From Eledone cirrhosa (taxonomy: Eukaryota): a stretch of DNA of 64,000 nucleotides. The stretch spans positions 16,802,001-16,866,000 of the forward strand of contig OZ024749.1 in assembly GCA_964016885.1 (NCBI GenBank). The letters run 5' to 3'. Shown one piece after another: positions 7,791 through 62,508 of this stretch. A model generated the notes under the pieces. That model was not told the origin of the DNA. It saw only the letters and a program-made list of their open reading frames with translations, and did not search any database. The position numbers and the translations under genes were made by a program. Every line of letters starts with the position of its first letter. The stretch's first letter is position 1.

Positions 7791-7928
7791 ATCATTTTAT
7801 GATCGTTTCTAGGATATATATGTGTTAGAGTTGGTATGCATATTCTATAGATCTATGTACAATATTTTCACAAACTATCAGAGGGAATATACATACCTAC
7901 ACATATATATGCTGTCTTCAGAAATAAT
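7791..7928 (-). ncRNA. Long-stem-II hammerhead (mirror of 13014-13151, ATA site)
   Basis: Reverse complement of the 13014-13151 motif with few substitutions. Confidence 0.65.
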
Positions 7929-8639: not shown

Positions 8640-8691
<52 letters not shown>

Positions 8692-13013: not shown

Positions 13014-13151
13014 ATTATTTCTGAAGACAGCATATATATGTGTAGGTATGTATATTCCCTCTGATAGTTTGTATAAATATTGTACATAGATCTATAGAAT
13101 ATGCATACCAACTCTAACACATATATATCCTAGAAACGATCGTAAAATGAT
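13014..13151 (+). ncRNA. Type I hammerhead with ~105-nt stem II
   Basis: attattt-CTGAAGA-[atatatatgtgt/acacatatatat; ggtatgtatattc/gaatatgcatacc]-GAAA-CGATCG-TA-aaatgat. Confidence 0.75.
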
Positions 13152-13203
13152 GATTTTTTTAATATAAGGAACTGTTTCTTTGTTTATTCATTATTTTATT
13201 AAT

Positions 13204-19935: not shown

Positions 19936-21438
19936 TCAGTGATATGCTTTCTTACATCTATGTATACATCTGTGTTTAGATAAATGACTACTTTCAAAGA
20001 ATGATTTTCCACAGATATCGCAGTGGTATGGCTTATCTCCTTTATGGGTACGTATGTGAGACATTAAGGAACTACTCCAAGAGAATGATTTACCACAGAT
20101 ATCACAATGATATGGCTTGTCTCCTGTATGTATATGTTTGTGTGTAATTAATTGACTACTTTGACAGAATGATTTACCACAGATTTCACAGTGGAATGGC
20201 TTGTCTCCTGTATGTGTACGTTTGTGGGAAGTTAAGTGACCACTTTGAGAGAATGATTTACCGCAGATATCACAGTGATATGGCTTGTCTCCTGTATGGG
20301 TATGTTTGTGAGTAGTTAAGGCACTACTGACAGAGAATGATTTACCACAGATATCACAGTGGTATGGCTTGTCCCCTGTATGTATACGTAAGTGTTTAGT
20401 TAAGGTACTACTTTCAGAGAATGATTTACCACAGATGTCACAGTGATATGGCTTGTCTCCTGTATGGGTACGTTTGTGAGTAGTTAAGGCACTACCATCA
20501 GAGAATGATTTACCACAGATAGCACAGTGATATGGCTTGCCTCCTGTATGTATACGTTTGTGGGTAGTTAAGTGACTACTAACAGAGAATGATTTACCAC
20601 AGATATCACAGTGATATGGCTTCTCTCCTGTATGTATACGTAAGTGTTTAGTTAAGGTACTACTTTCAGAGAATGATTTACCACAGATATCACAGTGATA
20701 TGGCTTCTCACCTGTATGTGTACGTTTATGACTAGTTAAGGCAATACTGACAGAGAATGATTTACCACAGATATCACAATGATATGGCTTGTCTCCTGTA
20801 TGTATACGTTTGTGTTTAGTTAAGGTGGTACTATCAAAGAATGATTTACCACAGATATCACAGTGGTATGGCTTGTCTCCTGTATGTATACGTTTGTGGC
20901 TAGTTAAGGTAGTACTATGAGAGAATGATTTACCACAGATATCACAGTGGTATGGCTTGTCTCCTGTATGGGTACGTAAGTGTTTAGTTAAGGTACCACT
21001 TTGAGAGAATGATTTACCACAGACATTACAGTGGTATGATTTCTCTCCTGTATGGGTACGTTTGTGAGTAGTTAAGGTACTACTATCAGAGAATGATTTA
21101 CCACAGGTATCACAGTGATATGGCTTGTCTCCTGTATGTATACGTTTGTGTCTAGTTAAGGTACTACTATCAGAGAATGATTTACCACAGATATCACAAT
21201 GATATGGTTTGTCTCCTGTATGTGTACATTTGTGGCTAGTTAATGATTTACCACAATATGGCTTCTCTCCTGTATGCATAACTTTGTGAGTAATTAAGGT
21301 ACTACGTTTATTGAATGATTTACCACAGATATCAGAGTGATATGGCTTCTCTTCTCTAACTTTTGTCATTTCACCAGGAATACTTAACACTTTAGATTGT
21401 GTTTCACATTTAATCTTCCCAGTCAACATATTTTCCAT
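19936..21438 (-). CDS. Tandem C2H2 zinc-finger protein (15 intact fingers, 2 degenerate N-terminal fingers), single coding exon
   Basis: 84-bp period; CxxC-x12-H-x3-H with TG(E/D)KPY linkers; 500-aa ORF. Confidence 0.95.
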
Positions 21439-21938
21439 GATTTTTTCTTCAACAGAATATACAAATGTTTTACTTGTACAAATGTTTTACTTATACAAAA
21501 GTTTTACTTATATTTCTTATATTATATTCCTAAAAATATATCTTCTATATTTCCCTCAACTGTGATTTCAGTTAATATCTGAAGATAATACAAACTTATG
21601 TTTCATCCAAGTTTAGTGAAAATACAAAATAATCTCATAGTGATAAAAATAAACTCAGTTCTGAGGAAATATTTCACAGTAATTGAACTATAGATTTATA
21701 TAAACAGTGTCATATAAGTTCTGTTTAAAATGTTTTAGTCTTCAAATGATGATAAATATAGTTGATGTATCCAAGATTGAAAATAATAATTTATCCCACT
21801 GTCATCTGGTATTCTGAAATGAAAAAGAAACAGTATGAGATAATAGAGAATACTTTAGAAGCAGAGATAGATTTAACAGTGGAAATTTTATATTTCTATA
21901 TTGATAAACTGTAGATATATATTTCTTACAAGATATAC

Positions 21939-23703: not shown

Positions 23704-23777
<74 letters not shown>

Positions 23778-23832
23778 ATATACATATATACATACCTATA
23801 TATATATACATATATATATATATATACATACC

Positions 23833-23908
<76 letters not shown>

Positions 23909-24014
23909 CATATATATACATATATATATATACATACATATATATATACATACATATTTATACATACATACATATATATATATACATATATATATATATA
24001 CATAAGTATACAGT

Positions 24015-26529
24015 ATACAGTAACAGATTTAAAGATATTTTACTCAATGCCTACGACAGTAAAGAAGAACAGATAGAGACATTCAATGTAGAAGAGAACT
24101 GGGAGTTCCTAAAAAATAATTTACTAGAGGCGACGGATGAGGTCTGTGGCTGGAGTACGACCACAAGCAGGAGGAGAGTGACTTGGTGGTGGAACAATAA
24201 GGTAGATGAAGCAGTTAAGGCCAAGAGACAGGCATGGAAAGAATGGAAGAACAGGGGGAGCAGGGTACATTACATAGAGACCAAGAGGGAAGCTAGGCGA
24301 CAAGTATACTTAGCTAGGAGGGAAGCAGAGGATAGAAAATTCAAGCATGTTTTGCAATGTGAGGACCAGAAACAGGAGGTGTTCAAGATTGCGAGGCAGT
24401 GTGTCAGAGATAGTTGTGATGTCATTGGAGAGAAGTGTATCCGGAATGATAAAGGTGAGCTTGCCCTCACAAGTGCTGAGAAGAAAGATGCATCGAAGAG
24501 TCATTATGATAGATTACTAAATGAGGAGAATGCATGGGAAGAAGAGACCCTACCCCAAGTAGACCCTATAGAGGGGCCAGCAGTACAAGTCAGCAGCAAC
24601 GTAGTAAGTAAGGCAATCAAAGATATGAAGATGGGGAAGGCAACCGGTCCATCGGGTATAGCTGCCGAGATGCTGAAGGCATCTGGGTCTGTAGGTCACA
24701 CTATAACCACACGTATTGTTAACCAGGTAATACTAGAAGGTGTCATACCAAAAGATTGGTGCAGTAGCATCATTGTCAACTGCTACAATGGTAAAGGTGA
24801 TGCACTAGATAGAGGAAACTATAGAGGTATAAAGTTGATGGACCAGGTCATGAAAGTAACAGAAAGAGTTATAGCACAGTTGATTAGGGACCGGGTGAAA
24901 ATAGACGAGATGCAATTTGGGTTTGTACCAGGAAGAGGCACCACTGATGCCCTCTTCCATGTGAGGCAGTTACAGGAAAAGTACCTAGCTAAAAGTAAGC
25001 CACTCTACTTGGCATTTGTCGACCTTGAGAAAGCCTTTGACAAAGTTCCACGTGCTGTAATCTGGTGGGCTCTTAGAAAACTAGGAGTAGATGAATGGCT
25101 TGTGAAAGCGGTACAAGCCATGTATAGGGGAGCAGTCAACAAAGTTAGGATTAGCAATGAGTATAGCGAGGAATTTAGCGTACAGGTTGGGGTCCACCAG
25201 GGCTCTGTTATTAGCCCCTTCCTGTTCATCATAGTCCTGCAGGCAATAACGGAGGAGATTAAGACCGGATGCCCATGGGAACTCCTGTATGCTGATGACC
25301 TCGCACTTATAGCTGAATCTATGGTAGAACTAGAGAAGAAATTCCAAACTTGGAAGCAGGGACTAGAAAGAAAGGGTCTCAAAGTCAACATGACAAAGAC
25401 TAAGGTCCTTGTAAGTAGATGAGAAAACAGAACCCAGATCCCCTCAGGGAAATGGCCTTGCTCAGTATGTAGGAAAGGTGTAGGTAGGAACTCCATTGTC
25501 TGCCCCAAATGCAAACAATGGGTACACAAGAGATGTAGCGGGATCTCAGGAAGCTTAATTAAGAATGTAGGCTTCACATGCAGCAAACAGCCACAGGAAA
25601 CAAGTACCACCAATCGCTGGGAGGGCTCTGTAGAAACAGTAGACAGCTTCTGCTACCTAGGTGACCGAATTAGCAGCGGAGGTGGGTGTTCAGAAAGTAC
25701 AATAACTAGGGTAAGAACGGGATGGAAGAAGTTTAGGGAACTACTACCACTGCTAGCTGCAAAAGGCTTCTCCCTCGAATGAAAGGCAGACTGTATGATG
25801 CATGTATCTGAACAGTGATGTTGCATGGTAGTGAGACCTGGGCGCTGAAGGTGGAAGACTTACGTAGATTAGAGAGAAACGAAGCCTGCATGCTCCGATG
25901 GATGTGTAACAGTAATATACGTGAACGACAAAGCATAAATGAATTGAGAAAGAGACTGAGCATAAGAGGAATCAAATGCTGTGTGCAGGAGAGGCGGTTG
26001 CGCTGGTATGGACATGTGATGCGTATGAAGGATGACAGCTGCATAAAAAGGTGCAGAGCACTAGAAGTTGATGGAAACCGCGGTTTGGGGAGACCCAAGA
26101 TGACCTGGGATGAGGTGATAAAAGCCGACCTTACCCAATTACACCTCTCAAAGGCAATGACACACGACCGTGACTTTTGGCGTCACGCAGTAATATAGAG
26201 TACCCGACCTCCCATGGGTACAAACTGAAGCATATAGAAAATATGCCCCCACACCCCCCACCGTAAGGTGGTCGTAGAGGTGCCACGGCAAAAAAGCACC
26301 CAGCCCACACTGTAAAGTGGACGTGTAGGCGCCACGAAAAAGCACCCAGCACTCACTGTAAATGAGGTTGGTGTTAGGAAGGGCATCCAGCTGTAGAAAT
26401 CAAGCCAAATCAGTTCCTGTATGAGCAAGGCATGGTCAGCCGACCAGACACTGCCCACAACAGGACAACCTGTCTAACCCATGCTAGCGTGGAAGAACGG
26501 ACGTAAAACGGTGATGATGATGATGATGA
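24015..26529 (+). mobile_element. RTE LINE (family C), 5'-truncated, with stop and frameshift
   Basis: ORF 24178-25422 (DLEKAFD, GVHQGS, YADD), PHD remnant, ORF 25815-26198, 3' UTR and (GAT)n tail. Confidence 0.92.
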
Positions 26530-27508: not shown

Positions 27509-30500
27509 CATCATCATCATCATCAACGTTTAACGTCCGTGTTCCACGCTTGCATGGGTTTGGACGGGGGTAGTCCCACTTGAGGCAAGAGTGATTGTCT
27601 TGCTCGCATAGGACTGTCTGGCAGGTTTTCTACAGTTGGATGCCCTTCCTAACACCAACCACATTTACAGTGTGGGTCTGGGAGGTTTTTACCGTGTTGC
27701 CTACACGGCCACATTACAGCGTGGACTGTGTGTTTTTTTGTCGTGACACCTACACGATCTCATTTGTTTCGGCCTGGATGGTGTGGCACCAACACAACTT
27801 TACATAGAACGGGGGGGGGGGGGGGGGGTATTTTGTTAGAGATGCCTACTGGCTGTAGTAGGTTTTACTATGTATTTAGGTAAGGCGGGTCTTCTCTGTT
27901 ACTGAGTACCGCCAAAGGTCTCGGTCCAGTGACACTGTCTTGGAGAGGTGTAAGTGTGTGAGGTCGGAGTTTATCAGCTCGTCCCAGGTTTTTCTAGGTC
28001 TGCCTATTCCGTGGCTACCGTCTATCTTTATTGCCCTGCACTTTGTTATACAGCTATCGACTTTCATGCGCATCATGTGTCCATACCAACGTAGCCTTCT
28101 CTCGAGTAAACAACATCTGATCCCTCTTATTTCTAATTTTTTCCTTAGTTCGTTTATGCTTTGCCGTTCACGTATATTACTGTTACACATCCAGCGGAGC
28201 ATGCAAGCTTCGTTCCTCTCTAGTCTGCGTATATCCTCTGCACACAATGCCCAGGTCTCACTGCCATGCAACATTGCTGTTCGTATGCAGGCATCGTACA
28301 ACCTGCCTTTCATTTTTAGGGAGAACCCTTTAGCAGCTAATAGTGGTATAAGCTCTCTGAACTTTTTCCAACCAGTTCTGACTCTAGCTACTGTACTTTC
28401 AGAGCACCCTCCCCCACTGCTGATTTTATCACCCAGGTAACGGAAACTGTCCACTATTTCTATAGAACCCTCTGCGCAATTGAAAGAGCTAGTATTTTGT
28501 GGGCACTTGCTGCTACTTATTGCACCAGAGCACCGGCCACATGTAAAATCTATGTTCTTAGTTAGCTTACCTGTGATCCCACTACATCTTTTATGCACCC
28601 ATACTTTGCATTTAGGACATAAAATGGAGTTTCTACCTACGCCTTTCCTACACACCGAGCACGACCATTTCCCAGAAGGGACCGCCGCCTTATTTTCTTT
28701 CCTACAAACTAGAACTTTAGTCTTAGCCAGGTTAATTTTAAGGCCTTTTGATTCTAGGCTGTGCTTCCATGTTTGGAATTTCTTCTCTAGCTCGGCTATT
28801 GATTCCGCTATGAGTGTCAGGTCGTCTGCGTATAGGAGTTCCCATGGGCAGCCGGTCTTGAACTCCTCTGTTATAGCCTGAAGGGCAATAATAAATAGTA
28901 GGGGGCTGAGAACAGAGCCCTGATGGACGCCAACTTTTACGCTAAACTCTTCACTATATTCGTTGTTAATTCTAACCTTGCTGACTGTTTCTTTATACAT
29001 GGCTTGTATAGCTCTCACAAGCCATTCGTCAACGCCTAGTTTTCTAAGAGCCCACCAGATAATGGAGCGGGGGACTCTGTCGAAGGCTTTCTCCAAGTCG
29101 ACAAAAGCTAAGTAGAGGGGTTTACCTTTAGCTAGGTACTTCTCCTGTAGTTGTCCTACAATGAAAAGAGCGTCTGTGGTACTTTTGCCTGACACAAACC
29201 CGAACTGCATTTCATCTAGGTCAATTCTCTCTCTGATTAGTTGTGCTATTACTTTTTCCGTGACCTTCATGACCTGGTCGATTAATTTAATGCCTCTATA
29301 GTTACTCCTATCTAGGGCGTCTCCTTTACCCTTATAACAGTTAACAATGATGCTGCTATGCCAGTCCTTCGGAACAACCCCATTCTGTACGACTTGGTTA
29401 ACTATGCGGGTGACCATGGTGTGTCCCACCGTGCCAGATGCCTTCAGCATCTCAGCAACTATTTCCGAAGGCCCAGCCGCCTTACCCGTCTTCATATCCT
29501 TGATTGCCTTACTTATTATACTCCCCTCGACTAACACTGCTGGTCCCTCTATTGGGTCGATATGGGGGAGACTGTCTTTCTCCCATTTATTCTCCTCATT
29601 TAGTAGCCTTTCATAGTGACACTTCCAAGCTACCTTCTTATCAGCGTCGGTGATGGCAAGTGTGCCATCGTCATTTAGTACACACTTCTCCCCGACAATA
29701 TCACGGTTTTCCTTGACGCATTGCCTAGCAATCCTGAACACCTCACGTTTTTGGTCATCGCGTTGTAGAACATGCTTGAACTTTCTTTCCTCAGCTTCCC
29801 TTCTTGCTAAGTACACTTGTCTCCTAGCTTCCCTCCTGGCCACTTGATAGTCTTCTCTACTTCCCCCATCCCGCCATACTTTCCAAGCCTGCTTTTTGGC
29901 CTTAATTGACCCCTCCACCTTACTGTTCCACCACCATGTTACTCTCCTCCTGCCTACAGGCCTGCTCCAGCCACAGACTTCGTCTGTCGCCAACAGCAGG
30001 TTTGCTTTCAGAAATTCCCACTCTCCCTCTATATTGTCCGACTCTAAATGTTCTTCCTTACTGTCGAAAGCATCAAGTAACATGCTTTGAAATTTATTCC
30101 TGGCTGTGGGGTCCTTTAGCTTCCATATTTTTCTCCTGAGGATAGTCCTCTTCTGCTGTCGAGTACGTCTCGTCCTGACTATGAGGTCGCTAATTATCAG
30201 TCTATGTTGGGAGGTGCATTCTTCATGGGGGAGGGATTTAGTGTTTACAACAGACACTCTGTCACGTCTTCTGGTAAGGATATAATCTACCTGGCTTGTG
30301 TGTTCCCCGGATCTATAGGTGATCAGGTCATTGTCACGTTTTTTGAAGTTAGTGTTACAGATAGTTAGGTTATTTGCATCACAGAATTCCAGGATTCTGG
30401 AGCCTTCCTCATTTCTAGTACCAAACCCATAGCCTCCATGGATTTCGTCGTAGCCGTCACAATGTTGTCCAACGTGACCATTTAGGTCGCCTGCAATAAT

Positions 30501-30590
30501 TATATAGTCACTGTCGGATATTTGGGAGGTAGTTAGCATCAGTGTCTCATAGAATCTGTCTTTTATAGTGCCGGGCAGTCCGGATTGGGG
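27509..30590 (-). mobile_element. RTE LINE (family A): uninterrupted ORF truncated within APE; APE-RT(PHD)-C-terminal domain, 3' UTR, (GAT)n tail
   Basis: GDLNGH, DYIL, SQH; DLEKAFD, YADD, FRYLG; the first ~10 codons of the listed ORF are microsatellite. Confidence 0.95.
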
Positions 30591-30603
30591 TGTATATATA
30601 TAC

Positions 30604-30660
<57 letters not shown>

Positions 30661-30674
30661 CATATATATACATC

Positions 30675-31428
30675 TCTATCTAAGGCGGGTAAAATTCCCG
30701 AGATCCATGGACGAGTTCTCTCCAGCGGTCTCTGTCCCTCATTATCGCTGCCATATCCTGCATCTCCAACAGACCAGTGTCTGTCCTTAGGGCGTCAACA
30801 TATGTTAACCTTGGTCTTCCTCTTCTAGTGTGTCCATGTAGGGGCTCCCAAAGGAGCACTGAGTGCAATGTCAACTCTGGATGTCGGTGAGCATGTCCAG
30901 CCAACCTCAGTCTTCTCTGTGTCACTTTTGAGCTGACTTTTGGGATGCTCCCATACAGCTCTGAGTTTTTCATCCTCAGTGTATACTGATTAATGTTTTG
31001 GTGACAAATACAGTGAAGGAGGCAGGGGATTTGATGCGGGAGGTTGAGACTGTGTCGATGAGTGTGGGGCTGAGAATGAATGAGACTAAAACAAAATATC
31101 TGGTAGAGAATGTTGAGAAGCCAGAGGGGATCACCAATGTAGGCGGGAAGCCGCTGGAATTGGTTGAGGACTTCCTGTATTTGGGAGCAAAGATTGGGAA
31201 TACGGAAGATGATGTGGTTGAGAGGAAGAGCAAGGCCTGGGCGGCGTGTCACAGCTTGAGATCGGTGTGGAAGTCAGACCTTCGTAGAGACCTGAAAATC
31301 CGCCTCTTCATTGCTGTAGTGGAGTCTGTGCTGCTGTATGGGTCTGAGACTTGGACACTGACCAAGAGACTCACTCAGATGGTGGATGGGTGCTACACGA
31401 GAATGCTGAGGATGGCTCTGAACATTAA
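30675..31428. mobile_element. Distinct RTE-clade element ((GATA)n-tailed family) with 5' inversion
   Basis: Minus 3' part 30675-30996 and plus-strand upstream part 30997-31428 are consecutive in protein (..RMALNIN/INQYTLRMKN..). Confidence 0.88.
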
Positions 31429-31474: not shown

Positions 31475-33157
31475 AGAGGCGATTAGGGAAATGAAAAATG
31501 GTAAGGCGGCCGGACCATCGGGAATAGTTGCTGAGATGCTGAAGGCATCAGGGGACGTAGGCACTAAACTGGTTGCACGCATAATCAATCAGGCTATATA
31601 TGGTGGTGTCATACCCAAAGACTGGTGCAGCAGTATTCTCATAAATTGCTACAAAGGTAAAGGGGATGCTTTGGAGAGGAGCAATTATAAGGGTATAAAA
31701 CTGATAGATCAGGTTATGAAAGTGGCAGAAAGGATTTTAGCACAACTAATTAGAGAAAGGGTCAAACTAGATGAGATGCAGTTTGGTTTTGTGCCTGGGA
31801 AGAGTACAACAGATGCCCTCTTCTTGGTGAGACAAATGCAAGAGAGGTTCTTAGAGAAGAATAAGCCACTATACTTAGCCTTTGTTGACCTAGAGAAGGC
31901 CTTTGGTAGGGTACCCCGATCTGTCATCTGGTGGTCCCTAAGGAAGCTGGGTGTTGAGGAATGGCTTGTAAGGACAGTGCAAACTTTGTACAGAGGTACT
32001 CTCAGTAAAGTCAGGGTAGGAATGGAGTTTAGTGAGGAATTCCAGATACAAGTAGGAGTACATCAGGGTTCGGTCCTCAGCCCGCTCTTGTTCATTATAG
32101 TCCTCCAAGCCATAACAGAGGAGTTTAAGACTGGCTGTCCATGGGAACTTCTCTATGCTGACGATCTGGCTCTTATGGCAGAATCAGTAGAGGAGCTAGA
32201 GAATAAATTCCGGCTATGGAAACAGCAGTTGGAAGCAAGAGGACTGAGAGTAAATCTAGCTAAGACAAAAGTGTTGATGAGTAGAAAAGAGGACAAAACC
32301 CTGATTCCGTCAGGGAAATGGCCATGTTCGATATGCAGAAAAGGAACTGGCATAAATTCTATAAAATGCACACAATGTAGGTCCTGGGTACACAAGAGAT
32401 GTAGCGGGATAGCAGGCAAACTAACAGGTAGGGAGAAATATGTATGCAGTAGATGTACAGGGAAATTAGACAGTAGAAGTCGCACTGATAGACACATTTT
32501 TCAAATGCGAGAGGGCGCTATAGAAGTGGTGGATAGCTTCCGGTACCTAGGAGATCAGATTAGCATGGGAGGAGGGTGTTCCGAGGCCATAGTATCTAGA
32601 ATAAGGACGGGTTGGAAGAAGTTTAGGGAGCTGCTTCCTCTGTTGACGAAGAAGGGTTTCTCCCTGCGTACGAAAGGCCGGTTGTATGATGCCTGTGTGA
32701 GGAGCGCGATGCTGCATGGTAGTGAGACATGGGCAGCTACCGCAGAAGATATGCGACGGCTGGAGAGAAATGAGGCAAGCATGCTCCGTTGGATGTGCAG
32801 TGTAAATGTGCGTGAACGACCCAGCATAAATGTGTTGAGAGAGAAACTGTGTCTGAGAGGGATAGAATGTAGTGTACGGGAGAGGAGACTGAGGTGGTAT
32901 GGACATGTGATGCGCATGGAGGATGACCGATGGGTGAAGAAGTGCCAGGAAATGCCAGTTGAAGGAAGACGTGGTAGAGGTAGACCGCGAAAAACATGGG
33001 TGGAGGTGGTGAGAACAGACCTCAGATCATTGAAGCTCACGGTGGAGATGACGAGGGACCGTGACGAGTGGAGAGATGCTGTGCTGAATAAGACCCGTCC
33101 CACCCTTGCAAGCAGGGAAAAGCGGACGTAAAATGATGATGATGATGATGATGATGA
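31475..33157 (+). mobile_element. RTE LINE (family B), open 546-aa RT(PHD) 3' half
   Basis: ORF 31491-33131; (GAT)n tail. Confidence 0.94.
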
Positions 33158-38911: not shown

Positions 38912-39378
38912 GTATCGGTTTACCGAACATTTATTATAATGTTCGGTTTGTTTGTTTGTATACTACTGTACGTCTGTATACATATATGTATATATACATA
39001 GTTACATTTAAGTATCAGCCGTACTAAGAGTGAGAAATGAAATTTCGTTTCATTCTTTTCCATTTATCGCTTTCGGTGCACCCGGCCAACTAACTCACTC
39101 GATATGCAAATTAGGCTGCTCAGCCGTTAATATGCATAAGGAAAGTATATACTTTCAGACGTTCAATCATCTGGCAGGAAGGTATGCGATGCTGATAAGC
39201 TTGAAACTAGTACATCGTTCCTTTGCCAGTGTTGAACAAAAAGGCGGCGATGGTTGCCTGAACACTGTACAGCGTAATTCGGGCTGTTTGTTTGTTTACA
39301 AACAAACAAACCGAACATTATAATGTTCGGTAAATCCATACGTACATATATATATGTGTGCATGTATGTATATATACA

Positions 39379-39412
<34 letters not shown>

Positions 39413-39597
39413 CTTCACTACCTCTTCTACGGCCTCGATATGAATACCCCCTCCGCCTCCGTGGTATTTTCTTCGTGGTTATAAGAGGCTTAGCTCTGTT
39501 TCTCGACCGTTATATCGCGTGACTATCTCCCCCTCCGCCTTTTGGGATTCTTTCTCACGTCGTGTAGACGCGTTCTTGAGACTAGTAAAATGAGGTA

Positions 39598-39685
39598 TCC
39601 TCTTGATAAGTTGGCAGACCTCGCAGGGACTCTATATCTTTGATATATTGTTTTTGTTTATGCCACGAAACTACGTAGTCGAGGA
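39598..39685 (+). ncRNA. Type I hammerhead, U3-A8 core variant, extended stem II, in an ORF-less ~345-bp insert between (TA)n tracts
   Basis: tcctc-TTGATAA-g t TGGCA..TGCCA c-GAAA-CTACGTAG-TC-gagga. Confidence 0.8.
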
Positions 39686-39944
39686 ATTTAGGAGCAGTTT
39701 AGGTATGATACATTTTATTACTAATTATATCTAAATGTTTCTTCTCTCTTCATAATGTATATATATATATATATATACACACACACATACCATATATACA
39801 GGGAAATTCCGTTATAATGAAATTCACGGGGTATAAAGATAATTCGTTGTAACGAAAAGTTCTTTATAACCGAAACAAATCGTTTGTTTGTTGTTCAATT
39901 GTATTCTAGTTATGGTGTTTCACATGGAACCTTATAGATATCGA

Positions 39945-41543: not shown

Positions 41544-41553
<10 letters not shown>

Positions 41554-42395
41554 GATCGAGTATCGAAAAATCGGCGCACGAGTTCACGATAAACAATATT
41601 CGAAATGAGCGGCAGAGGGCTCAATAATTCAGATGAATCAGAGCTATAACTATCGTTAAAATACCGTCACACATAGAACAAGTCTAAAATCAACCATACA
41701 ATAAAAAATCGATAATAGAAGATTCGGGACAAACAGATAAAAAATATCAATAAAACAATACATCAATAATTTAAATGAATGTAAAATCATACCCGGACCC
41801 ACTAGAAAGGTGTTAAATCTAGCTTCTTGGGTTTCTGTAAATCCTTAGACTGTACTCTATCAGCTCACATATAAATATATAAGACTACTAGAGCAAGCGG
41901 AATGGAGTTTACTTCATCAACGAGCTTTTTCCTAGCGGATAAGAGGCTAACTACAAGCGAAATACGCACATGGAATTCGACAAGGGATATAACCTCTACA
42001 TCCGCGAAAATTATTCGAGGAAATGTGGAAATACACATATCGAATAAGAGTGCTCAATAGACATGTTAAAATAAAACAGGAGCTATTCATCACTCAATAG
42101 AATCGACAAAAAATGAGCAATAAAATTAACTGGTGGATAGCTATGTCCAGAGCTAAAAATATTAGAAAGATCGAGTATCGAAAAATCGGCGCACGAGTTC
42201 ACGATAAACAATATTCGAAATGAGCGGCAGAGGGCTCAATAATTCAGATGAATCAGAGCTATAACTATCGTTAAAATACCGTCACACATAGAACAAGTCT
42301 AAAATCAACCATACGATAAAAAATCGATAATAGAAGATTCGGGACAAACAGATAAAAAATATCAATAAAACAATACATCAATAATTTAAATGAAT
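41544..42395 (-). mobile_element. Retrozyme-like ORF-less element: 615-bp unit with 237-bp terminal redundancy
   Basis: 41544-41780 matches 42159-42395 (1 mismatch seen); HHR at 41792-41924; TA-rich flanks. Confidence 0.75.
41792..41924 (-). ncRNA. Type I hammerhead with extended stems II and III
   Basis: ctcg-TTGATGA-a gtaaactcc..ggatttac a-GAAA-CCC..gctaga/tctagt..GGG-TC-cggg. Confidence 0.75.
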
Positions 42396-42489
42396 ATATA
42401 TATTGTGTGTGTCTGTGTGTTTATATATATATGTTTTTCTTTGTATATTAATCATCTTTTAACATATATATGTGTATATAAAATATATA

Positions 42490-44395: not shown

Positions 44396-45242
44396 TTTCC
44401 TAATTCCACTTAATTCCATTAAATATTCAATCTTGGTCGAAATAAATATTTTCATCTGTGACGATCTGTACAACCAATAATAGTAGGAGTCACGTTACAT
44501 GATATGTATATATACAGGGTGTCCCTAAAATATGTATACACATTTACATAGACTGTAGTTGAAGTGTGTATACATTTTTGGGGGAGGCCCTGTATATATT
44601 ATATATACACATATATATGTTAACAGATGATTGATATATATATATATATATCTACACTCATATATATATTTATATATATATATATATATAAAGATATATA
44701 TACTCTTACGTTTATACGTCTGAAAATGTATATATGTATGTAAACACATACCTAAACATACATGTATACATATAGATGGACAGTTATACATATACAATAA
44801 CTTATTTCTATACATACATATACCACAAGTAAGGCATGGTGCTGCCAACTAACCAGACCTCCCTCATAATGGACCAGCTAGATCCCAAAATACAGGCCTG
44901 CTAGCCAACACAGTCCCAATAAGTGTAAGTTACAGCGCAGCTATCTGGACAGACTTGTCATTATCGCACTAATCATTATCCCACTACATCTTTTGTATAC
45001 TATATATATACTGTTTATGTATATATATACACACATATAATTGTGTATTGACACATTATCTTAGTAATAAAATGTTTAATAATTTTAGTAAATTGTTCAA
45101 AATTTTTCATTAACCTTTTTGGTAGAAACCCAGCCAAAATTGGTTCTCGTTCTATGGAAATGGTTCCTATCTAAATTAAAGTCTTGCAACGAAATTCTAT
45201 ATAACAACCATATGTTAAGTTACTATGTTAGTAATTAACTAA

Positions 45243-45342
45243 CAAGTGTGATAAATAGCTCAAAATTATTTATAATTAATTGAAATACGAGGTTCATAAT
45301 TATAATAAAATCTTCGAATAAGCTACGAAACCGGTAAACCTG
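45243..45342 (+). ncRNA. Degenerate long-stem-II hammerhead (xTGATAA core)
   Basis: GTGATAA-a TAGCT..ttataatta/taattataa..AGCTA c-GAAA-CCGG-TA; stem I imperfect. Confidence 0.5.
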
Positions 45343-45749: not shown

Positions 45750-46003
45750 GTTTACGCGGTGATAGCGCGTAATTCATGAACGTATGGTTCGTGAGTTCGA
45801 ATCCCAGACCGGGCGGTCTGTACGTTGGGGACTTGAACAAGACATGTCCCCCAGCTGGCAAAAATAATAAGTTGTACCAGTAATTATAGACTAACGTTGT
45901 TACATAGAATTGGCACACTGAATCTCCCTGAGAACAATGTCGACGGTACACGTGTCAATGAAATACCCAGCCACATTACTACCCAGACCCACAACTACGT
46001 ATA
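45750..46003 (+). mobile_element. tRNA-derived SINE-like element (second family)
   Basis: B-box GAGTTCGAATCC followed by a CORE-like cttgaacaagaca segment. Confidence 0.55.
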
Positions 46004-46927
46004 TATTAGTGACTATCAGAATAGTATATCTAGGACTACATTATCTAATGTACAGTATAGTAGTTAGTATTAGTGGTTATCAGACATAGTGTATCTAGGA
46101 CTACATTATCTAATGTACAGTATAGTCTTTAGTATTACTGGCTATCAGACATAGTGTATCTAGGACTACATTATCTAATGTACAGTATAGTAGTTAGTAT
46201 TACTGGCTATCAGACATAGTATATCTAGGACTACATTATCTAATGTACAGTACAGTAGTTAGTATTAGTGGTTATCAGACATAGTATATCTAGGACTACA
46301 TTATCTAATGTACAGTATAGTCTTTAGTATTACTGGCTATCAGACATAGTGTATCTAGGACTACATTATCTAATGTACAGTATAGTAGTTAGTATCAGTG
46401 GCTATCAGACATAGTGTATCTAGGACTACATTATCTAATGTACAGTATAGTAGTTAGTATTAGTGACTATCAGATATAGTGTATCTAGGACTACATTATC
46501 TAATGTACAGTATAGTAGTTAGTATTAGTGACTAGCAGACATAGTGTATCTAGGACTACATTATCTAATGTACAGTAGTTAGTATTAGTGGTTATCAGAC
46601 ATAGTGAATCTAGGACTATATTATCTAATGTACAGTATAGTAGTTAGTATTAGTGGCTATCAGACATAGTGTATCTAGGACTACATTATCTAATGTACAG
46701 TAGTTAGTATTAGTGGTTATCAGACATAGTGAATCTAGGACTATATTATCTAATGTACAGTATAGTAGTTAGTATTAGTGGTTATCAGAAATAGTGTATC
46801 TAGGACTACATTATCTAGTGTACAGTACAGTAGTTAGTATTATTGGCTATCAGTCATAGTGTATCTAGGATACATTATCTAATGTACAGTAGTTAGTATT
46901 AGTGGTTATCAAACATAGTGTATCTAG
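46004..46927. repeat. Minisatellite, ~14.5 copies of a 65-bp (variant 60-bp) unit
   Basis: tattagtggttatcagacatagtgtatctaggactacattatctaatgtacagtatagtagttag. Confidence 0.97.
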
Positions 46928-46939
46928 TTCATTTCAGCC

Positions 46940-49877
46940 AACCAGTTCATTTATAAAGAACTCAGAAAAAACTACAAAAAAACTAGCACCACCACGCTGA
47001 CATCCTTAAACAACACATCGTGTGATATAGTAAAAAAAACTCCATATTGAGGATAGAACGGAGCCATTCACACCTAAAAGCCCGCACTTCAACCTGAAAG
47101 ACCACAAATCTGCATCGATTCTTACTATTCTTCGATTTCTCCAATTCTCTTAAACAAAGCACTGATTTTCGCCAGAAATAGATCGGATTTATCTACTGTG
47201 GAAATCAACATTATAACTCACGCTAGAAAAACCTTACTAAACTTCCAAGAAGAACACTGGACAAGAAACACAGATAACAACTTACTCGATATAACGATGG
47301 GCTCCATGGACTCTGCTCAAGTTACAGACTTCGTTGGACTATTTCTCCCCTATAATATTCATTCCCCTTTTCCCCACCTCAAAGGTGGTCTATATCGTGA
47401 TGATTGTTTATTGATATCTAACATTCTTAGCAATTCTAATATAGAGAAAAACAAAAAACAAATTAGAAGATTCCTCAAGGACTATTACCACCTTAATATC
47501 ACCTTTGAAAACACCTCAAAAGTAACCAACTTCCTTGACATTACCTTAGACCTCTCTGTAATATTTATCAACCTTACCACAAACCCAACCAGAATCTACA
47601 CTATGTACATTCACGCTCTAACCACCCTGGCTCTATACTCAAAAACTTAGTATACAACATATCTCTTAGACTTTCTAAATTATCTTCCAATGAGGATATA
47701 TTTTATAAAAATGCACCTTTCTACAACGAGGCCTTAACTAGAAGTAGATATAAAAAAAAAATTTCATATATCCCCAGCACTACTATGGACCACACTACAA
47801 AACCTAGCAAAAACTACAAACACCAAAAAGTACCATCGAAACAAATGCCTAATGGGGTCATTCCTATCACACCAAACAACCGAAAAACCACAACAACTAC
47901 ACGATCTATGACCAATGTTATCAACTCACATATGACTACCAAACATTCAAAATCTCATGATCTACCCAATAATAACACCAAATACAACCACTGAAATTTA
48001 CCAAAATCCACAAATTCAAATACTGACCATAGGAACTCTTCTAGAACACAGCACATTATTATAAATGAGAAGAAGAACTTAACTAAAAACCGCAAAAGAA
48101 ACATAACATGTTACAACGCACCCTTCAACCTGCAAACTATTGGACAAATCCCCCCAAAATTCTTCGAAATTCTACATAAACATTTTCCACCAAACCACAG
48201 GTACCACCAAATATTTAACAGGTATACTGTCAAATTCTCATACTCTACATCAGACAATCTCCAACGGAAAATAAGCAACTACAACATTTATAAATTTTAA
48301 AATAATATGACCACACCACCACAACATCATTTAAATAAGACTGCACCTCTTAAAAGGACAAATAATACAATTATTCAACATAGAAAACACAACCACCCAA
48401 ATTACCAACACAAAAACAACATAACACAAAATCACAATACAACCCCAGCACTAAATCACCCACAAAGCAGCACTTATTCTCTCTCTAACATTAATTACAA
48501 TAAGAATAGCTCCAGGATTAATGAGAATTATGTAGGTACCTCTAACAACCATCTTACGTATGGTTGTAATTGCAGAAATAGAAGCGCTTGCCCCTTAAAT
48601 GGCAACTGTTTGATTAATAATGTAATATATAAATGCACTGTGTCTACTACTGACTCCAACAAATCGTATAGAGGATCCTCATCGAACACATTTAAGAAAA
48701 GATATTACGCACACTCCAGTAGCTTTAACAATACTAAACTAGCTAACACCACATCTTTGGCTGAAGCAGTAAATAACTATAAAAAGAAAAAAATAGATTT
48801 AAAACTATCATGGAATACCATTCTACAAAGAACTCCATATCTTGGGAACAGGAGAGAATGCAGATTATGTTCCGGTGAGATCTTGGAAATTACCAATTGT
48901 AAAGACGATTTATTGAATAAACGACAGGAATTGATTATAGTTTGTAATCACCGTATACCAAAAACATTTAAATATTATAAACCTAACTAAACATTCTAAA
49001 TAGCAGCTCACTGTAGCTCTATGTGACAAACCTTTCTATTTATATCCCTTTCTCCTAATTATACGCCTTCCTGTTAATTGTTTAACCTTTTAATTTTTTA
49101 GCTTCCATAGATTCGTGTATTACTGACTATTATATTACATTATATTATATTAATATATTATTGTATTTAATTATCTTATTATAATTTTAATATTTTAATA
49201 TACTATCCTTCCTAATTATGACCATTAACTTATTTATCTATATTTATTCTAGTTATTTCCGTATATCTCATATTTCTTTATTTATATTCACCTAAAACAT
49301 CCTATTCAACACAACTATACATTTTTTTTTTAAATTTTACTCCACCATCTACATTCCGCTATCAACACAATCCCCCTTTCTCTATAAGTAATTCTATTTT
49401 TAACACCATTCAACCTTTCCTTTCAAAAGGTCATGACCTTAGCTAGAGTGAGTTATATTTCGTCTTAACATCATTTGGCAAAACACCATTTGATTGGTTT
49501 ATTCTTCGTATGCCTCCAAATAAGGTCATAGAACGCAATTTACTATTGAATAAAATTCTCATTGCTTTTGACAACGGCTGATAAAATGCACGTAGGTAAA
49601 TATTTTCCTAATTTGATATATTGTAACTAACCTTACATAGATCGATAACGAAATATGCGTACGATGTATTATTATCACCTAAAACGATCGTAAAGCAGTG
49701 AAGTATTTTCCTAATGACTTAAATTTTTATTTCATTGTTTTAACTTATATCATGACTCTGTTTTACTTTTAATGTTTTTTGAATTTCCGGGATTTATTTT
49801 AACCTACAACATTTTCAACATATGGATTACATTGAGTTGTTCATGCAGACCCCATAACTAACTGTGGATATTTCTGT
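46940..49877 (+). mobile_element. Decayed PLE related to 7605-13206
   Basis: ORFs 47198-47650 (ITMGS, GGLYRDD) and 48307-48990 (CNCR..CPL, ends KTFKYYKPN). Confidence 0.9.
49561..49699 (+). ncRNA. Long-stem-II hammerhead homologue (U3-A8 core, G12A)
   Basis: attgctt-TTGACAA-[tgataa/ttatca; aatgca/tgtatt; cgta/tacg]-AAAA-CGATCG-TA-aagcagt. Confidence 0.65.
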
Positions 49878-50767: not shown

Positions 50768-53554
50768 TTATACTTCTCTTAGGTCAGTGTTGTTTGTTTG
50801 GGTGTTGTTGTTGTTCCACTCATTCTTTCTGTTTAGCTTTGGTCTTCTAATTTCTATTTCACTGGCCTCTCTGATTTGCCTATCTGCTGGGTCATTCCTA
50901 TGTTTAGATATTATTCTAATTTCTATGTTGTCTATGTTACCGTCATGATGTTGTCTAGCATGTTCGTATAGTACTGACCCGTTTTTTCGTCCTTTTAGTT
51001 CCCCCCAGTGTTGGTCTATCCTTTCACCTATGCTACGAGCTGTCTCACCTATGTATGTTGTTGTCGTGTTTCTGCAAGTACCCTCTGTACATCTTATGCT
51101 ATAGACTACGTTTCTAGTTTTACAGTTTATCCGGGGGTTCACCTTACATATGATACATTTCCTATTGGTACAGTGGGTTTTCTTAAAAGGGTAGGTTTTG
51201 CTGATCAGGGATTTTATGGTGGTTCCTGGCTTTTCTACCACCTTTATTTTTAAGTGGGTCTTTCTCAGGGCCTTTCTACACTGGTTAGCTAATTTCCCTC
51301 CAGGGGTGGCGTCCACAAACATGACACTCTGATATCTCTGGTTGTCGTACCATGATGTGGCCTTCCCTATCTTATGTCTAGCCCTATCTAAGCTATTCCA
51401 TGATTTGCTCCTGTATAGTGGGCAAATTCCTTTCATGTCCAGTTCTATGAGGGTCTTATACTTTTCCATGGCTCCTTCGTATACTCTGACTCTGTCTCTT
51501 TGGTTGTAGCCAGAGAACTGCATGCGGTTGATGAAGTGTTGGATGTGTCCTTCCATTTCTGTTGGGTCGCACATGCTGGACACATTCTTCATCACTCGTA
51601 CCAAATCTGCGATCAGAATATTAAACTTAGCACTACTGGACATTGCTGAGTTTTTGAGTATCAGGTATTTGGACGCCATGGGTTTAGCATAGTGTGAGTG
51701 GAGAATGTGGGCTCTCTCGTCTATAGTGTTAATCCAGAGTTCTGTGTCTAATACAGGTAGTCTATTGTTAGGGTGTTTGGAAGGGAAGTCTATAGTTACA
51801 GTTATACTCTGGTGTATGGAATTAGCTATCTGCTGGATGCTTTCCATCGTGCTACGTTCTAAATCAAACTTGTTAGTGCTCTCTAGTGGGGGTGTTCTTA
51901 TAACTATATTGATATCGTCTACATAACGAGAGTACATGATGAGGTCTATGGAGCTTTCATTAAGGAGATCTTTAAGTCTCCTTTCCCACCATACCATGAA
52001 AAGGTTGGCAACATCGCCAGCTATGCTGACGCCGATGGCTGCTCCCTCATTTTGGGTGTAGATTTTCTCATTGAACTTAAATATGTGGCCCTTTAGGGTA
52101 GTTTTGATACTAGCCCCTATTGCATGTGCGACCATTTTTCTTACCTGATCAGTGTTTTGGGGGGTCCGTATAGCTTTGGTCCACCCAATCCACCTTCCTA
52201 TGGGAGTCTTTTTAGCCATTGAGGTTATGGTGGGGGGTCTACCTCTTATAGGTCTACTCGGGCAGAGACATCTAAGGTCATGGCTGTCTAGGTAGTCAGT
52301 GTCGTAGGTAAGTCTAAGTAGGAGGCCCAGTTCGTCTGTGTCGACGTCGCAGAACTCCACCTCACTCTCAATAATCATCTCCACACATCTTTTCACAGCA
52401 AGATCAATGTTAATGGATGGGTACAGTGACACCACATCCATGCTGCCTATTATGCAGTTGGATAGGCTCCTGTTTTTGTTGCACTCACTGATTCTGCTGA
52501 GGAGGTCCTCTGTACTTTCACATACATCTGGGGACATCTTGATTATGGGGCGTATAACCATTGAGAGGAAGTAGGAGATCCTGTAGTTGCTAGCTATATT
52601 AGCTCCGCATACAGGTCTTGTTGGTGGTCCTGTTGTCGGGTCGTCGACTGTCTTGTGGTCTTTGCGGAGCCCATACAAGGGTGGTATGCCATTGTTAGAC
52701 GCCTGGAAGTTGTTGGCAGTGCGTCTGCTTGGCTTTAGGATGTCAGTCCACATCATCATGTGAGCGTTGAGGATTTTTTCTCTCCCATCGTGTGTTAGTT
52801 GTGCAACTTCGCTCGTGTTGGTGATGTGGGGTTGCATTGCCTCGATGTAGTTCGGCATGCTATCTATTGACATCCTACCAGACTTATCTGTGGGTAGACA
52901 CACTACCTCACCATCCCTTGTGCGCTGCTTGAGGCTAACCAAGCCTTCTACAGGTTTTATCCCAAGTTGTTGGGCCTCTGGTCTGCTCTGTCTCATAGTG
53001 TACCTGTCTACTACTTGTCTAATCTTATTTCTAGCTATGGTGAACTGTGCCTCCGTCTCGTCATCTATTTGTTGTGGTATGCAAACTCTTTTATTAAAGG
53101 GTAACCTCGTAGGATAGATATTACCCATCTTATATGTTTTGTCAGCTGGGTTGAAAAATAGTTTCTCTAAGGGGTTGTCGTTATTTCTATCGTCATAGTT
53201 GTGTGTGTTGCTATTATTATTATCATGGTGGTTGTTGTTGTTTCTATCATTAGCATTAATATTATTATTGTTATGATTGCTAGATGTATTGTTGTTTACT
53301 TCACCGTTATTGTTGTTGTTGTTACTGCTATTTCTACCATTGTGGTTGTTACTATTATTATGTTTCTTGTTTTTGTTGATGTTGCTACATGTACTATTTC
53401 CATTATTACCACTGTGGTTATTGTTGTTGTTGTTGTTCGTATTGTTACCGTTATTACTACTGTGGTCACTGTTGCTGTGTCTGTGGTTAACGTTTCTATT
53501 ATTATTATTATTGTGGTTGTTGTTGTTCTGTCTATCGCTAGTATTATTACCAAA
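50768..53554 (-). CDS. PLE polyprotein, 5'-truncated: Asn-rich region, RT, Cys linker, GIY-YIG
   Basis: 786 aa from Met 53128 ([39 protein letters not shown]); the frame reads open ~140 codons further upstream. Confidence 0.88.
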   Translation of the reverse strand, partial: FGNNTSDRQNNNNHNNNNNRNVNHRHSNSDHSSNNGNNTNNNNNNNHSGNNGNSTCSNINKNKKHNNSNNHNGRNSSNNNNNNGEVNNNTSSNHNNNNINANDRNNNNHHDNNNSNTHNYDDRNNDNPLEKLFFNPADKTYKMGNIYPTRLPFNKRVCIPQQIDDETEAQFTIARNKIRQVVDRYTMRQSRPEAQQLGIKPVEGLVSLKQRTRDGEVVCLPTDKSGRMSIDSMPNYIEAMQPHITNTSEVAQLTHDGREKILNAHMMMWTDILKPSRRTANNFQASNNGIPPLYGLRKDHKTVDDPTTGPPTRPVCGANIASNYRISYFLSMVIRPIIKMSPDVCESTEDLLSRISECNKNRSLSNCIIGSMDVVSLYPSINIDLAVKRCVEMIIESEVEFCDVDTDELGLLLRLTYDTDYLDSHDLRCLCPSRPIRGRPPTITSMAKKTPIGRWIGWTKAIRTPQNTDQVRKMVAHAIGASIKTTLKGHIFKFNEKIYTQNEGAAIGVSIAGDVANLFMVWWERRLKDLLNESSIDLIMYSRYVDDINIVIRTPPLESTNKFDLERSTMESIQQIANSIHQSITVTIDFPSKHPNNRLPVLDTELWINTIDERAHILHSHYAKPMASKYLILKNSAMSSSAKFNILIADLVRVMKNVSSMCDPTEMEGHIQHFINRMQFSGYNQRDRVRVYEGAMEKYKTLIELDMKGICPLYRSKSWNSLDRARHKIGKATSWYDNQRYQSVMFVDATPGGKLANQCRKALRKTHLKIKVVEKPGTTIKSLISKTYPFKKTHCTNRKCIICKVNPRINCKTRNVVYSIRCTEGTCRNTTTTYIGETARSIGERIDQHWGELKGRKNGSVLYEHARQHHDGNIDNIEIRIISKHRNDPADRQIREASEIEIRRPKLNRKNEWNNNNTQTNNTDLREV

Positions 53555-54300
53555 TAAAGGTGGTAGAAAAGCCAGGAACCACCATAAAATCCCTGATCAG
53601 CAAAACCTACCCTTTTAAGAAAACCCACTGTACCAATAGGAAATGTATCATATGTAAGGTGAACCCCCGGATAAACTGTAAAACTAGAAACGTAGTCTAT
53701 AGCATAAGATGTACAGAGGGTACTTGCAGAAACACGACAACAACATACATAGGTGAGACAGCTCGTAGCATAGGTGAAAGGATAGACCAACACTGGGGGG
53801 AACTAAAAGGACGAAAAAACGGGTCAGTACTATACGAACATGCTAGACAACATCATGACGGTAACATAGACAACATAGAAATTAGAATAATATCTAAACA
53901 TAGGAATGACCCAGCAGATAGGCAAATCAGAGAGGCCAGTGAAATAGAAATTAGAAGACCAAAGCTAAACAGAAAGAATGAGTGGAACAACAACAACACC
54001 CAAACAAACAACACTGACCTAAGAGAAGTATAAATAAATAAGTAAATTAAATTAAATAAAATAAGATAAATAAATACATACACAAGCACATAAACACACA
54101 CTAGTCACCCAGCAGACACAACACTATACACACTAGTCACACATCACACATAACACTATACACACACGCAAACGCATGCGCAAAGAAGACAAAATAAAAT
54201 AAGATAAACAAACAAGCAAATAAATAAATAAATATATAGACAGACTGAACAAAAAAAAATGGCGTAGACATACAACACAACAGGAGGAACAATGAATATA

Positions 54301-57059: not shown

Positions 57060-57975
57060 TATATCATAAAACATGTCTTAGAATCATCAGATATTAAAAT
57101 ATATACTATTTCTTCTTCTAATTAGCATAATTAACGATATACAAAATCAAATCTAGCAAGCTTTAAGAATAAATTTTCATATGGGGAAATCTCTGACAAA
57201 CAATCGACCGTAGCCTCTTCGCGGCAGCCCCGTTCCATTATTTATCGAACATTTCGACAGCATGCAGACTTCGACCAAATATACCATCAACCACACACAA
57301 TTAGTAGTAAAATTAAACTTAGAAGAAATGCGCACATACCGTAATTATATCCCTACCATGGTTTCTTCCTTATTTAGGACATCCAAATAATATGGAATGC
57401 CAGAGTTAGTTTCATCAGGGGATAAACTCAAAATCAGACATTTAGTTTTTCAATCCGATCGCGCCAAATTTAGATTAAAAAATGGCTAAATCGCTATGTA
57501 GCTGTGTTCCAGCCAGAGAGAAAGAGTGTGATTGGTTGCTTATGGCGGGTAGGCTTGCTGCTAGAAAGCGCAGCCGTATATCGCCAAATTTAATCTCAAC
57601 CAATTGGGAGATTATTAAATATAAGGGTTATCATATACATAAAATTAAATATATATATATGTTGCAACTGTTCACTTTTAAGCTCTATGAAGAATTAATA
57701 AATTAAAATAAAAAAATCAGAGCATTATATCATAAAACATGTCTTTTAGAATCATCAGATATTAAAATATATACTATTTCTTCTTCTAATTAGCATAATT
57801 AACGATATACAAAATCAAATCTAGCAAGCTTTAAGAATAAATTTTCATATGGGGAAATCTCTGACAAACAATCGACCGTAGCCTCTTCGCGGCAGCCCCG
57901 TTCCATTATTTATCGAACATTTCGACAGCATGCAGACTTCGACCAAATATACCATCAACCACACACAATTAGTAG

Positions 57976-57977
<2 letters not shown>
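57060..57977 (-). mobile_element. Retrozyme-like ORF-less element: ~667-bp unit with ~250-bp terminal redundancy
   Basis: 57060-57309 matches 57726-57977 (2-bp indel); HHR at 57348-57424; (TA)n both sides. Confidence 0.75.
57348..57424 (-). ncRNA. Type I hammerhead with extended stem II
   Basis: tatccc-CTGATGA-..ggcattcca/tggatgtc..-GAAA-CCATGG-TA-gggata. Confidence 0.72.
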
Positions 57978-60334: not shown

Positions 60335-60733
60335 TTAGAAAGTGAGGTTTTTTTTACAAAATGAAAAATAACCGAGGTGTCCTACACGAGTGAAAGTATA
60401 AAGAAAAAGAGATGAAATCGAAAATGCAACTGGAGTCTTATTTAAAAAAAATATATATATATATTTATTTGGTTCCTTTACCGGTTTCGCAATTCTTCTG
60501 CTTTTCAAAAGGTGAGTTGAGATGGAGGGTCTGTGGTTTTTCTCACATCTGGTTGGTCTCTCAATGTTACTTGTTTTATTATGGAAAAAGTGGCTCGAAA
60601 TGCCAGGTTTTTCGAGAAGTAATTTGATTGGTTTGTCAATAATTATAATAAATTTCGCGCCAGTTCGCGTTACAATAGTTCTTCAAATAAGAGGGGGGGG
60701 GGGGTTGTCACAGGTTGTTTTTTCATATATGAG

Positions 60734-61836: not shown

Positions 61837-62508
61837 ACGTTTTGTGTTTATCATATATTTTAATGTATTTAACTGCTCGGAAATGCCCCTTTTCTTGGAG
61901 CTGGATTATTGTAAACGACTGAGAGTTTATTCTCAAAATATAATATAGTATATTGCTCCTTAACTGTAGAGCTGATCTTTAATCCCGCATAAACGGCTGT
62001 TATTTCTAGCACCGGGAATGCGGGACGGCTAATTTGGCCTGGCTACACACGTGTAGTCAGACCTGCTAAATTTTTGAGGTGAAATATACTAATTTTACTG
62101 GGTTCCTGTTGATAAGCACAGAAGATTTGGATATTTCACTTTTTATTTCTATTCCATTTCGATTCTCTTTATTTTTCAATTCACGTACCACCGTTGCGAA
62201 ACGGATTTAGGTTTCGAGGTTCAAATTCATCTACGGAGCAGGTTTGGATTTTGAAATTTAAATTTGTCCAGGAACCATGGCCTTTGCCAATATAAGCTTG
62301 TCTTTATTGACTTATATCGAGACAGACAAATTGTATTCACTTTAATTAGTTTATTTCATTAATAGCTAACTTTGTCTGTTACAATGCAAACACGTTTTGT
62401 GTTTATCATATATTTTAATGTATTTAACTGCTCGGAAATGCCCCTTTTCTTGGAGCTGGATTATTGTAAACGACTGAGAGTTTATTCTCAAAATATAATA
62501 TAGTATAT
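61837..62508 (+). mobile_element. Retrozyme-like ORF-less element: 555-bp unit with 117-bp terminal redundancy
   Basis: 61837-61953 matches 62392-62508; HHR at 62101-62276; ends in (TA)n. Confidence 0.75.
62101..62276 (+). ncRNA. Type I hammerhead, U3-A8 core, 26-bp stem III
   Basis: ggttcctg-TTGATAA-GCA..TGC-GAAA-[62202-62227/62241-62266]-TC-caggaacc. Confidence 0.85.

Follow-up and report, generated by a model that had tools for sequence, protein, structure and literature searches.

In the active fold of the hammerhead ribozyme, C3 and G8 of the catalytic core pair with one another (PMC3088659). The 64,000-nucleotide stretch of Eledone cirrhosa DNA analysed here (the window) carries at 39598–39685 (+) a hammerhead motif in which both of these letters differ, reading U3 and A8, and the question raised by this locus is whether the double change denotes a working core with a compensated pair or the decay of a single copy. 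A sequence-only reading of the window had favoured the former, pointing to the recurrence of the variant core in families that it considered unrelated and concluding that catalysis was under selection. Our preferred interpretation, held with high confidence, is that of a hammerhead of the Penelope-like element (PLE) type with a U–A core, borne by a non-coding repeat that is very abundant and has (TA)n as its insertion site, and acting by the mechanism proposed below.

The novelty that the earlier reading implied for the variant does not hold, natural covariation from C3–G8 to U3–A8 having been published in 2011 for several hammerheads, stated there to be active in vitro (Perreault et al.; PMC3088659, citing its reference 32), and U3–A8 having been reported in 2014 for PLE hammerheads, namely those of Schistosoma mansoni Cercyon elements, with ∼1,300 copies (Cervera and De la Peña; PMC4209133) and with UUGAUAA(A) and UUGAAAA(A) among the cores given in the supplement. 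The core has been in print since 2011–2014, including from the same element class, and 39598 is an ordinary new example of it. None of the papers listed by a search of the accessible literature deals, by its title or the opening of its abstract, with octopod hammerheads, and neither the available text of PMC7229834 nor the part of the PMC4209133 supplement that was searched contains the word ‘octopus’.

Anatomy of the hammerhead at 39598–39685

As delineated by descriptor scans and fold prediction, the motif consists of three helices around a core, with the open end in helix I, the type I topology. The 5′ strand of helix I (TCCTC, 39598–39602) pairs over 5 bp with its 3′ strand (GAGGA, 39681–39685); between them lie the core box of positions 3–9 (UUGAUAA, 39603–39609; U3 at 39603, A8 at 39608), a helix II domain of 57 nt (39610–39666), in which G10.1–C11.1, a bulged U and five further pairs form a 6-bp helix with one bulge that continues into a long stem-loop extension, and the segment 39667–39680, comprising the GAAA box (39667), a self-complementary helix III (39670–39679) and the GUC triplet, with cleavage predicted 3′ of C17 (39680). 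G10.1 follows directly upon A9, the bulge being placed one base further in and none between positions 9 and 10.1. The invariant core (U4 G5 A6, A9, G12 A13 A14, A15.1–U16.1 and the NUH triplet) is complete here and in the motif at 62109, and positions 3 and 8 are, by their letters, a Watson–Crick pair, as U3–A8. The earlier description of 39598 as otherwise perfect is borne out for the core, the GUC and the exact 10-nt palindrome of helix III (3–4 bp in the monomer, 10 bp in the dimer), but not for helix II, with its bulged U and 57-nt domain, nor for the monomer, 0.7% of whose predicted ensemble adopts the hammerhead fold. Judged on sequence, 39598–39685 is a genuine hammerhead of type I, and one of the PLE kind.

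Published PLE hammerheads are described as having a palindromic helix III, a helix II bulge and activity as dimers, and as lacking recognisable loop 1–loop 2 contacts (PMC4209133). Like the U3–A8 hammerheads of Cercyon, 39598 is of type I with a helix I of 4–5 bp, G10.1–C11.1, palindromic positions 15–16 and the same cores, with dimer dependence (predicted here) and mostly single dispersed copies; unlike them, it carries a 10-nt palindrome in place of a minimal helix III, its extra base comes after G10.1 whereas theirs separates positions 9 and 10.1, and its helix II domain is of 57 nt (82–106 nt in the other motifs of the window), in contrast to the short hairpins of the published alignments. 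The motif at 62109 departs from Cercyon in its long helix III. A bulged base within helix II and a slightly longer palindromic helix III are shared with PLE hammerheads of Drosophila virilis Penelope, rotifers, shrimp and mosquito (PMC4209133), although these have C3–G8 and differ in host and in helix II length; with the variants of Perreault et al. (PMC3088659), 39598 shares the covariation of C3–G8 to U3–A8.

Recognition of the motif beyond chance

The heptamer TTGANAA occurs 27 times on the plus and 29 times on the minus strand of the window, and with 56 occurrences it is uninformative, so that the full motif alone counts. A narrow descriptor, with a restricted helix III and an obligatory GAAA, passes over the motifs at 62109 and 49568. 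When a strict type I descriptor was applied with positions 3 and 8 unconstrained, three matches were obtained (62109, 39603 and −60508, the minus sign here and below denoting the minus strand), each of them U3–A8, where 60 block-wise dinucleotide shuffles yielded 0.05 matches on average; a looser descriptor gave seven matches against 0.335 per shuffle, and three real matches against 0.01 per shuffle at a score of at least 50 (200 shuffles in both cases).

Standard Rfam scans overlook every hammerhead of the window: the hammerhead models gave no match at gathering score across its whole length, the best 150 of 384 matches at a relaxed E-value, again for the whole window, were microsatellite or hairpin look-alikes with no hammerhead among them, and local scans of 39420–39745 and 61840–62500 to an E-value of 10 returned no hammerhead family. 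Long helix II domains together with the variant core likely explain these misses. That 39598 is a chance look-alike, as the Rfam result, the commonness of the heptamer and a modest fold z of −1.9 for the motif at 39603 might suggest, has a negligible probability and is already largely refuted by the excess of matches over shuffles and by the helix I pairing kept between 13021 and 49568; it is also at odds with an anatomy in agreement with published PLE hammerheads in every point, and with the location of homologous motifs 3′ of PLE open reading frames (ORFs).

The repeat that carries the hammerhead

The hammerhead lies in a non-coding repeat copy of ∼350 nt (39410–39757, +), between (TA)n runs at 39382–39409 and 39758–39777, with no ORF of at least 100 aa. 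This is probably a 3′-truncated copy of a non-autonomous Penelope-like unit of ∼590 nt; within the window the family has no second copy or relative and no autonomous partner element. Beyond the window, the stretch 39420–39745 is present in whole or in part in 20 of 24 listed public sequencing runs (16 studies), with at least half of its words in 13. One run, X1, possibly from the source organism itself, has 847 contigs on the repeat, at a summed depth of ∼2–5 × 10⁵ over most bins, a figure that marks a very abundant repeat and is not a copy number. An exact 23-nt family motif had no match in metagenome contigs. Of the four runs aligned to the repeat, two others (X5 and X12) have three contigs each on it, and the one or two differences in these could fall in the core; the fourth, X22, gave no read in a sample of about 1 in 100 of the run. 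In a single contig of X12, 39745 is joined to 39420 by 265 intervening letters, and an inverted piece is present as well, which suggests a head-to-tail unit near 590 nt in a PLE-like tandem and inverted arrangement, as read from this contig, which comes from a different organism. For PLEs, partial tandems, inversions and (TA)n targeting have all been described (PMC8557442), and non-coding hammerhead repeats have been proposed to be non-autonomous PLE derivatives (bioRxiv 10.64898/2026.07.22.740005).

At 39603 and 39608 no alternative letter reaches 2% in the X1 contigs, which drop rare variants, omit letters near contig ends and allow about two thirds of the depth to be assessed, and in which a minority C–G class could be hidden. 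CUGANGA is not the family consensus in this run; with no other letter at 2% in 847 contigs, U3–A8 is the family form of the repeat and not decay of the 39598 copy. Alternative letters of at least 2% are found at four flanking places, and in the extension of helix II an insertion of 2 nt reaches this share. The resulting contrast, of no substitution place in the 88 nt of the hammerhead against four in 238 nt of flanks, is not measurably different; the hammerhead being no more conserved than its surroundings, fixation shows the state of the founder, not selection among copies, and may reflect just a young burst from one founder.

Further hammerheads of the window

The heptamers reported by the sequence-only reading were all recovered at their positions (TTGATAA at 39603 and 62109, TTGACAA at 49568, GTGATAA at 45248), although as U3–A8 hammerheads the four sites differ in standing. 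Complete, like 39598, is the type I hammerhead at 62101–62276 (+; TTGATAA at 62109), identified by descriptors and sequence, which has a helix I of 8 bp, a long and non-palindromic helix III and a GUC triplet, and which resides in a partial tandem unit of 555 nt (61837–61953 = 62392–62508). The motif at 49559–49701 (+; TTGACAA at 49568) has a helix I of 9 bp and a fold z of −4.8 but lacks G12, its second box reading AAAAC; it lies ∼580 nt 3′ of a GIY-YIG-type ORF (48301–48990) of a broken Hydra-type PLE. The site at 45241–45342 (+; GTGATAA at 45248) is a decayed relic, its helix I paired at the first base alone and its fold z +1.05, picked up by neither the strict nor the looser descriptor; with G at position 3, it holds no information on U3. 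A fourth U–A member, missing from the earlier list, is the small hammerhead at 60474–60512 (−; UUGAAAA, core −60508), the weakest of them, with a 6-nt palindromic helix III, a helix I of 4 bp and a fold z of about 0. That the variant recurs in unrelated families agrees with the lack of shared flanks within the window, but independent origins are not thereby established.

Other cores retain C3–G8 or show a single change. A C3–G8 homologue of the 49568 ribozyme (core 13021; 13011–13154, +) lies 3′ of a related Hydra-type PLE and has a second copy at −7921. A further C3–G8 hammerhead (core −57418) is found in a 666-nt partial tandem between (TA)n runs (57060–57977, −; 57060–57309 = 57726–57977, 99%), while the cores −50494/+54307 and −4360/+7102, likewise C3–G8, stand 3′ of a second PLE family and have a bulged base ahead of a 6-bp helix II and a poorly paired helix I. 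Hammerhead-like motifs with C–G cores are also seen at −58312, with a U4C change, and at −19523 and −26814, two members of one family whose palindromic helix III consists entirely of A and U. A well-folded U3–G8 wobble hammerhead of type I with a long helix III (core −41920; 41790–41926, −), a possible living intermediate between C–G and U–A, is carried by a partial tandem of 615 nt with 99% identity between its repeats (41544–41783 = 42159–42398). The remaining single-change core belongs to a very small hammerhead-like motif (39186–39218, +; core 39192) reading CUGAUAA, a C3–A8 mismatch, with a helix I of 6 bp, no real helix II, a palindromic helix III and GUA, within a ∼500-nt element with inverted ends (38874–38963/39294–39379). 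A candidate at 3557, with A at position 3 and a helix III within a TA run, was judged to be a chance match.

Two features recur among these sites. The motifs at 13021, 49568, 45248, −41920 and −57418 have a mismatch (C–A, A–C or A–A) at the expected G10.1–C11.1 position, beyond which helix II is long (50–110 nt), and the 555-, 615- and 666-nt partial tandems of 62109, −41920 and −57418 are bounded by (TA)n. Like non-LTR retrozymes, the carriers are non-coding repeat units with a type I hammerhead (PMC7229834; bioRxiv 10.64898/2026.07.22.740005), but whereas retrozyme units measure 150–450 nt (PMC7229834) and form tandem arrays, those of the window are of ∼550–670 nt and occur as single or 1.2–1.4-unit copies in (TA)n.

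Switching of the 3–8 pair

The hammerheads at 13021 (C–G) and 49568 (U–A) align across the entire motif and are homologous ribozymes. The ORFs upstream of them, both of Hydra-clade character by their DKT and CxCX5C motifs, are 76% identical in the reverse transcriptase (RT) part (152 aa) and 58% in the endonuclease part (150 aa), and the 3–8 pair has consequently switched within one PLE lineage. In helix I all nine pairs are kept between the two, through two two-sided and two one-sided changes, a comparison that involves three sequences, two of them nearly identical, and counts as one. Both hammerheads lie 3′ of, and on the same strand as, these RT and GIY-YIG ORFs, and membership in the pLTR of a named autonomous element is indicated, by position, for these two alone. 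Together with the family form in X1, the switch and its helix I compensation uphold the proposal that U3–A8 is a compensated pair and not copy decay.

The covariation of positions 3 and 8 that the earlier reading had asked for is seen in this switch, but is borderline across families. In a hand tally of 12 distinct families of the window, from which 45248 (position 3 being G or lost) and 3557 were left out, six are C–G (13021/7921, −57418, −19523/−26814, −58312, −50494/54307 and −4360/7102), four are U–A (39603, 62109, 49568 and −60508), one is U–G (−41920) and one C–A (39192), giving a Watson–Crick pair in 10 of 12 and a Fisher p of 0.072 two-sided (0.045 one-sided), or of 0.21 (0.10 one-sided) when the two families with a poor helix I are removed. 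The tally leans towards selection on the 3–8 pair and is not strong alone. Selection for catalysis stays an inference, since the association is borderline and activity is here predicted.

These data also bear on the view that 39598 is a catalytically weak or dead passenger, its founder, derived from a PLE hammerhead that had once been active, having come to U3–A8 through AT-biased drift and the repeat having been amplified regardless of cleavage. The window is AT-rich and each of the two changes is a transition towards A+T, the hammerhead shows no excess conservation within its family, single-change cores exist in the window (U–G at −41920, C–A at 39192), Naiad PLEs multiply in the absence of canonical hammerheads (PMC8557442), and poor cleavage in vitro, of dimers too, is reported for PLE hammerheads (PMC4209133; review PMC6765202). 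Drift of this kind is nevertheless improbable in light of the 10 families with Watson–Crick pairing, four of them as the double change and with other core letters mostly intact, of the compensation seen in helix I when 13021 and 49568 are compared, and of the in vitro activity reported for U3–A8 (PMC3088659).

Predicted folding and proposed mechanism

The suggestion that the palindromic stem III would permit dimerisation is substantiated by prediction. Alone, helix III of 39598 is calculated to form an unstable hairpin (+1.5 kcal/mol), in comparison with −12.9 kcal/mol for the palindrome duplex; the dimer, at −57.3 kcal/mol against 2 × −21.9 kcal/mol for the monomers, is favoured by 13.5 kcal/mol and is predicted to be a double hammerhead in which helix III extends over 10 bp, helix I is swapped and the cores are unpaired. 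The palindrome thus favours, in the model, the double hammerhead, and cleavage of 39598 is likely to be dimer-dependent and slow; for comparison, Xenopus retrozyme dimers gave no product in eight of nine cases (bioRxiv 10.64898/2026.07.22.740005). The hammerhead at 62109 has little to gain from dimerising (−99.8 versus −94.2 kcal/mol in prediction), and should therefore act as a monomer.

Under the preferred reading of a PLE-type ribozyme on a mobile repeat, units of the 39598 family would insert in (TA)n and would probably be mobilised in trans by autonomous PLEs. The short helix III being unstable alone, two copies within a tandem or otherwise more-than-unit transcript would pair through the 10-nt palindrome and exchange helix I strands, and the double hammerhead so formed would cut 3′ of the GUC (39680) and so set free RNA of unit length, which a PLE RT/GIY-YIG protein could reverse-transcribe in trans. 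For the only copy of the window, a partner in trans would be required. The most likely origin of U3–A8 is a pair of transitions with a tolerated U–G wobble as the intermediate, and the variant is proposed to have been retained because cleavage needs the pair, the change being permissive and involving no new chemistry.

A more ambitious role would be positive tuning, whereby U3–A8 slows or conditions cleavage, more-than-unit transcripts survive for reverse transcription, and the variant is favoured in highly amplified non-autonomous families. We regard this as very unlikely: the presence of U3–A8 in four of 12 families in 64 kb, its fixation in the very abundant 39598 family and the ∼1,300 U3–A8 matches beside ∼2,000 C–G motifs in Schistosoma (PMC4209133) speak in its favour, but AT-biased mutation and the need for a pair account for the frequency without it, and neighbouring partial-tandem or PLE-linked families thrive with C–G (−57418, 13021). 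It is also doubtful, though less so, that the genome holds a group of undescribed, (TA)n-targeted, non-autonomous PLEs of 550–670 nt, with long-helix-II hammerheads missed by Rfam, in which the 3–8 pair has flipped repeatedly (C–G in 13021, U–A in its sister 49568, U–G at −41920 in a young element). In the boldest version of this scenario, U3–A8 would have been selected as a slower core balancing cleavage against the survival of more-than-unit transcripts, and would, if true, offer a direct handle on what hammerheads do for PLEs. Returning to the preferred reading, in which the pair is simply retained, the window provides a natural core series of C–G, U–G and U–A, with U3–A8 ribozymes of monomer type (62109) and dimer type (39598), and this series is suited to side-by-side kinetics on the role of hammerheads in Penelope-like elements.

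Genomic setting

The DNA of the window is AT-rich (GC 0.21–0.46 in 2-kb bins), with many (TA)n runs and numerous retroelement ORFs, several of them of the RT plus GIY-YIG Penelope-like type; for one PLE ORF the best named relatives are proteins of Argonauta hians, at 35–43% identity, as would suit an octopod-like host. Elements of LINE type, encoding an endonuclease, an RT and a PHD finger, are located at 27876–30794 (−), 23704–26198 (+) and 31476–33131 (+), the first with an open frame of 972 aa, and a C2H2 zinc-finger array ORF of 516 aa with 84-nt repeats is found at 19936–21486 (−). A Hydra-type PLE (7783–13159) has nested inverted repeats (8847–9433/11518–12104 and 7783–8311/12631–13159) and repeats the 5′ box of the hammerhead, in partial form, near 12790 (+) and 8150 (−). 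In the second PLE family, an uninterrupted ORF of 942 aa (50768–53596, −) is accompanied by a perfect inverted copy of 1,001 nt. A near-perfect 85-nt hairpin at a PLE inversion junction (5981–6065) gives a sub-threshold match to a microRNA model, and a tandem array of at least 14 copies of a 65-nt unit (45891–46985) lies immediately upstream of the broken PLE at 47078.
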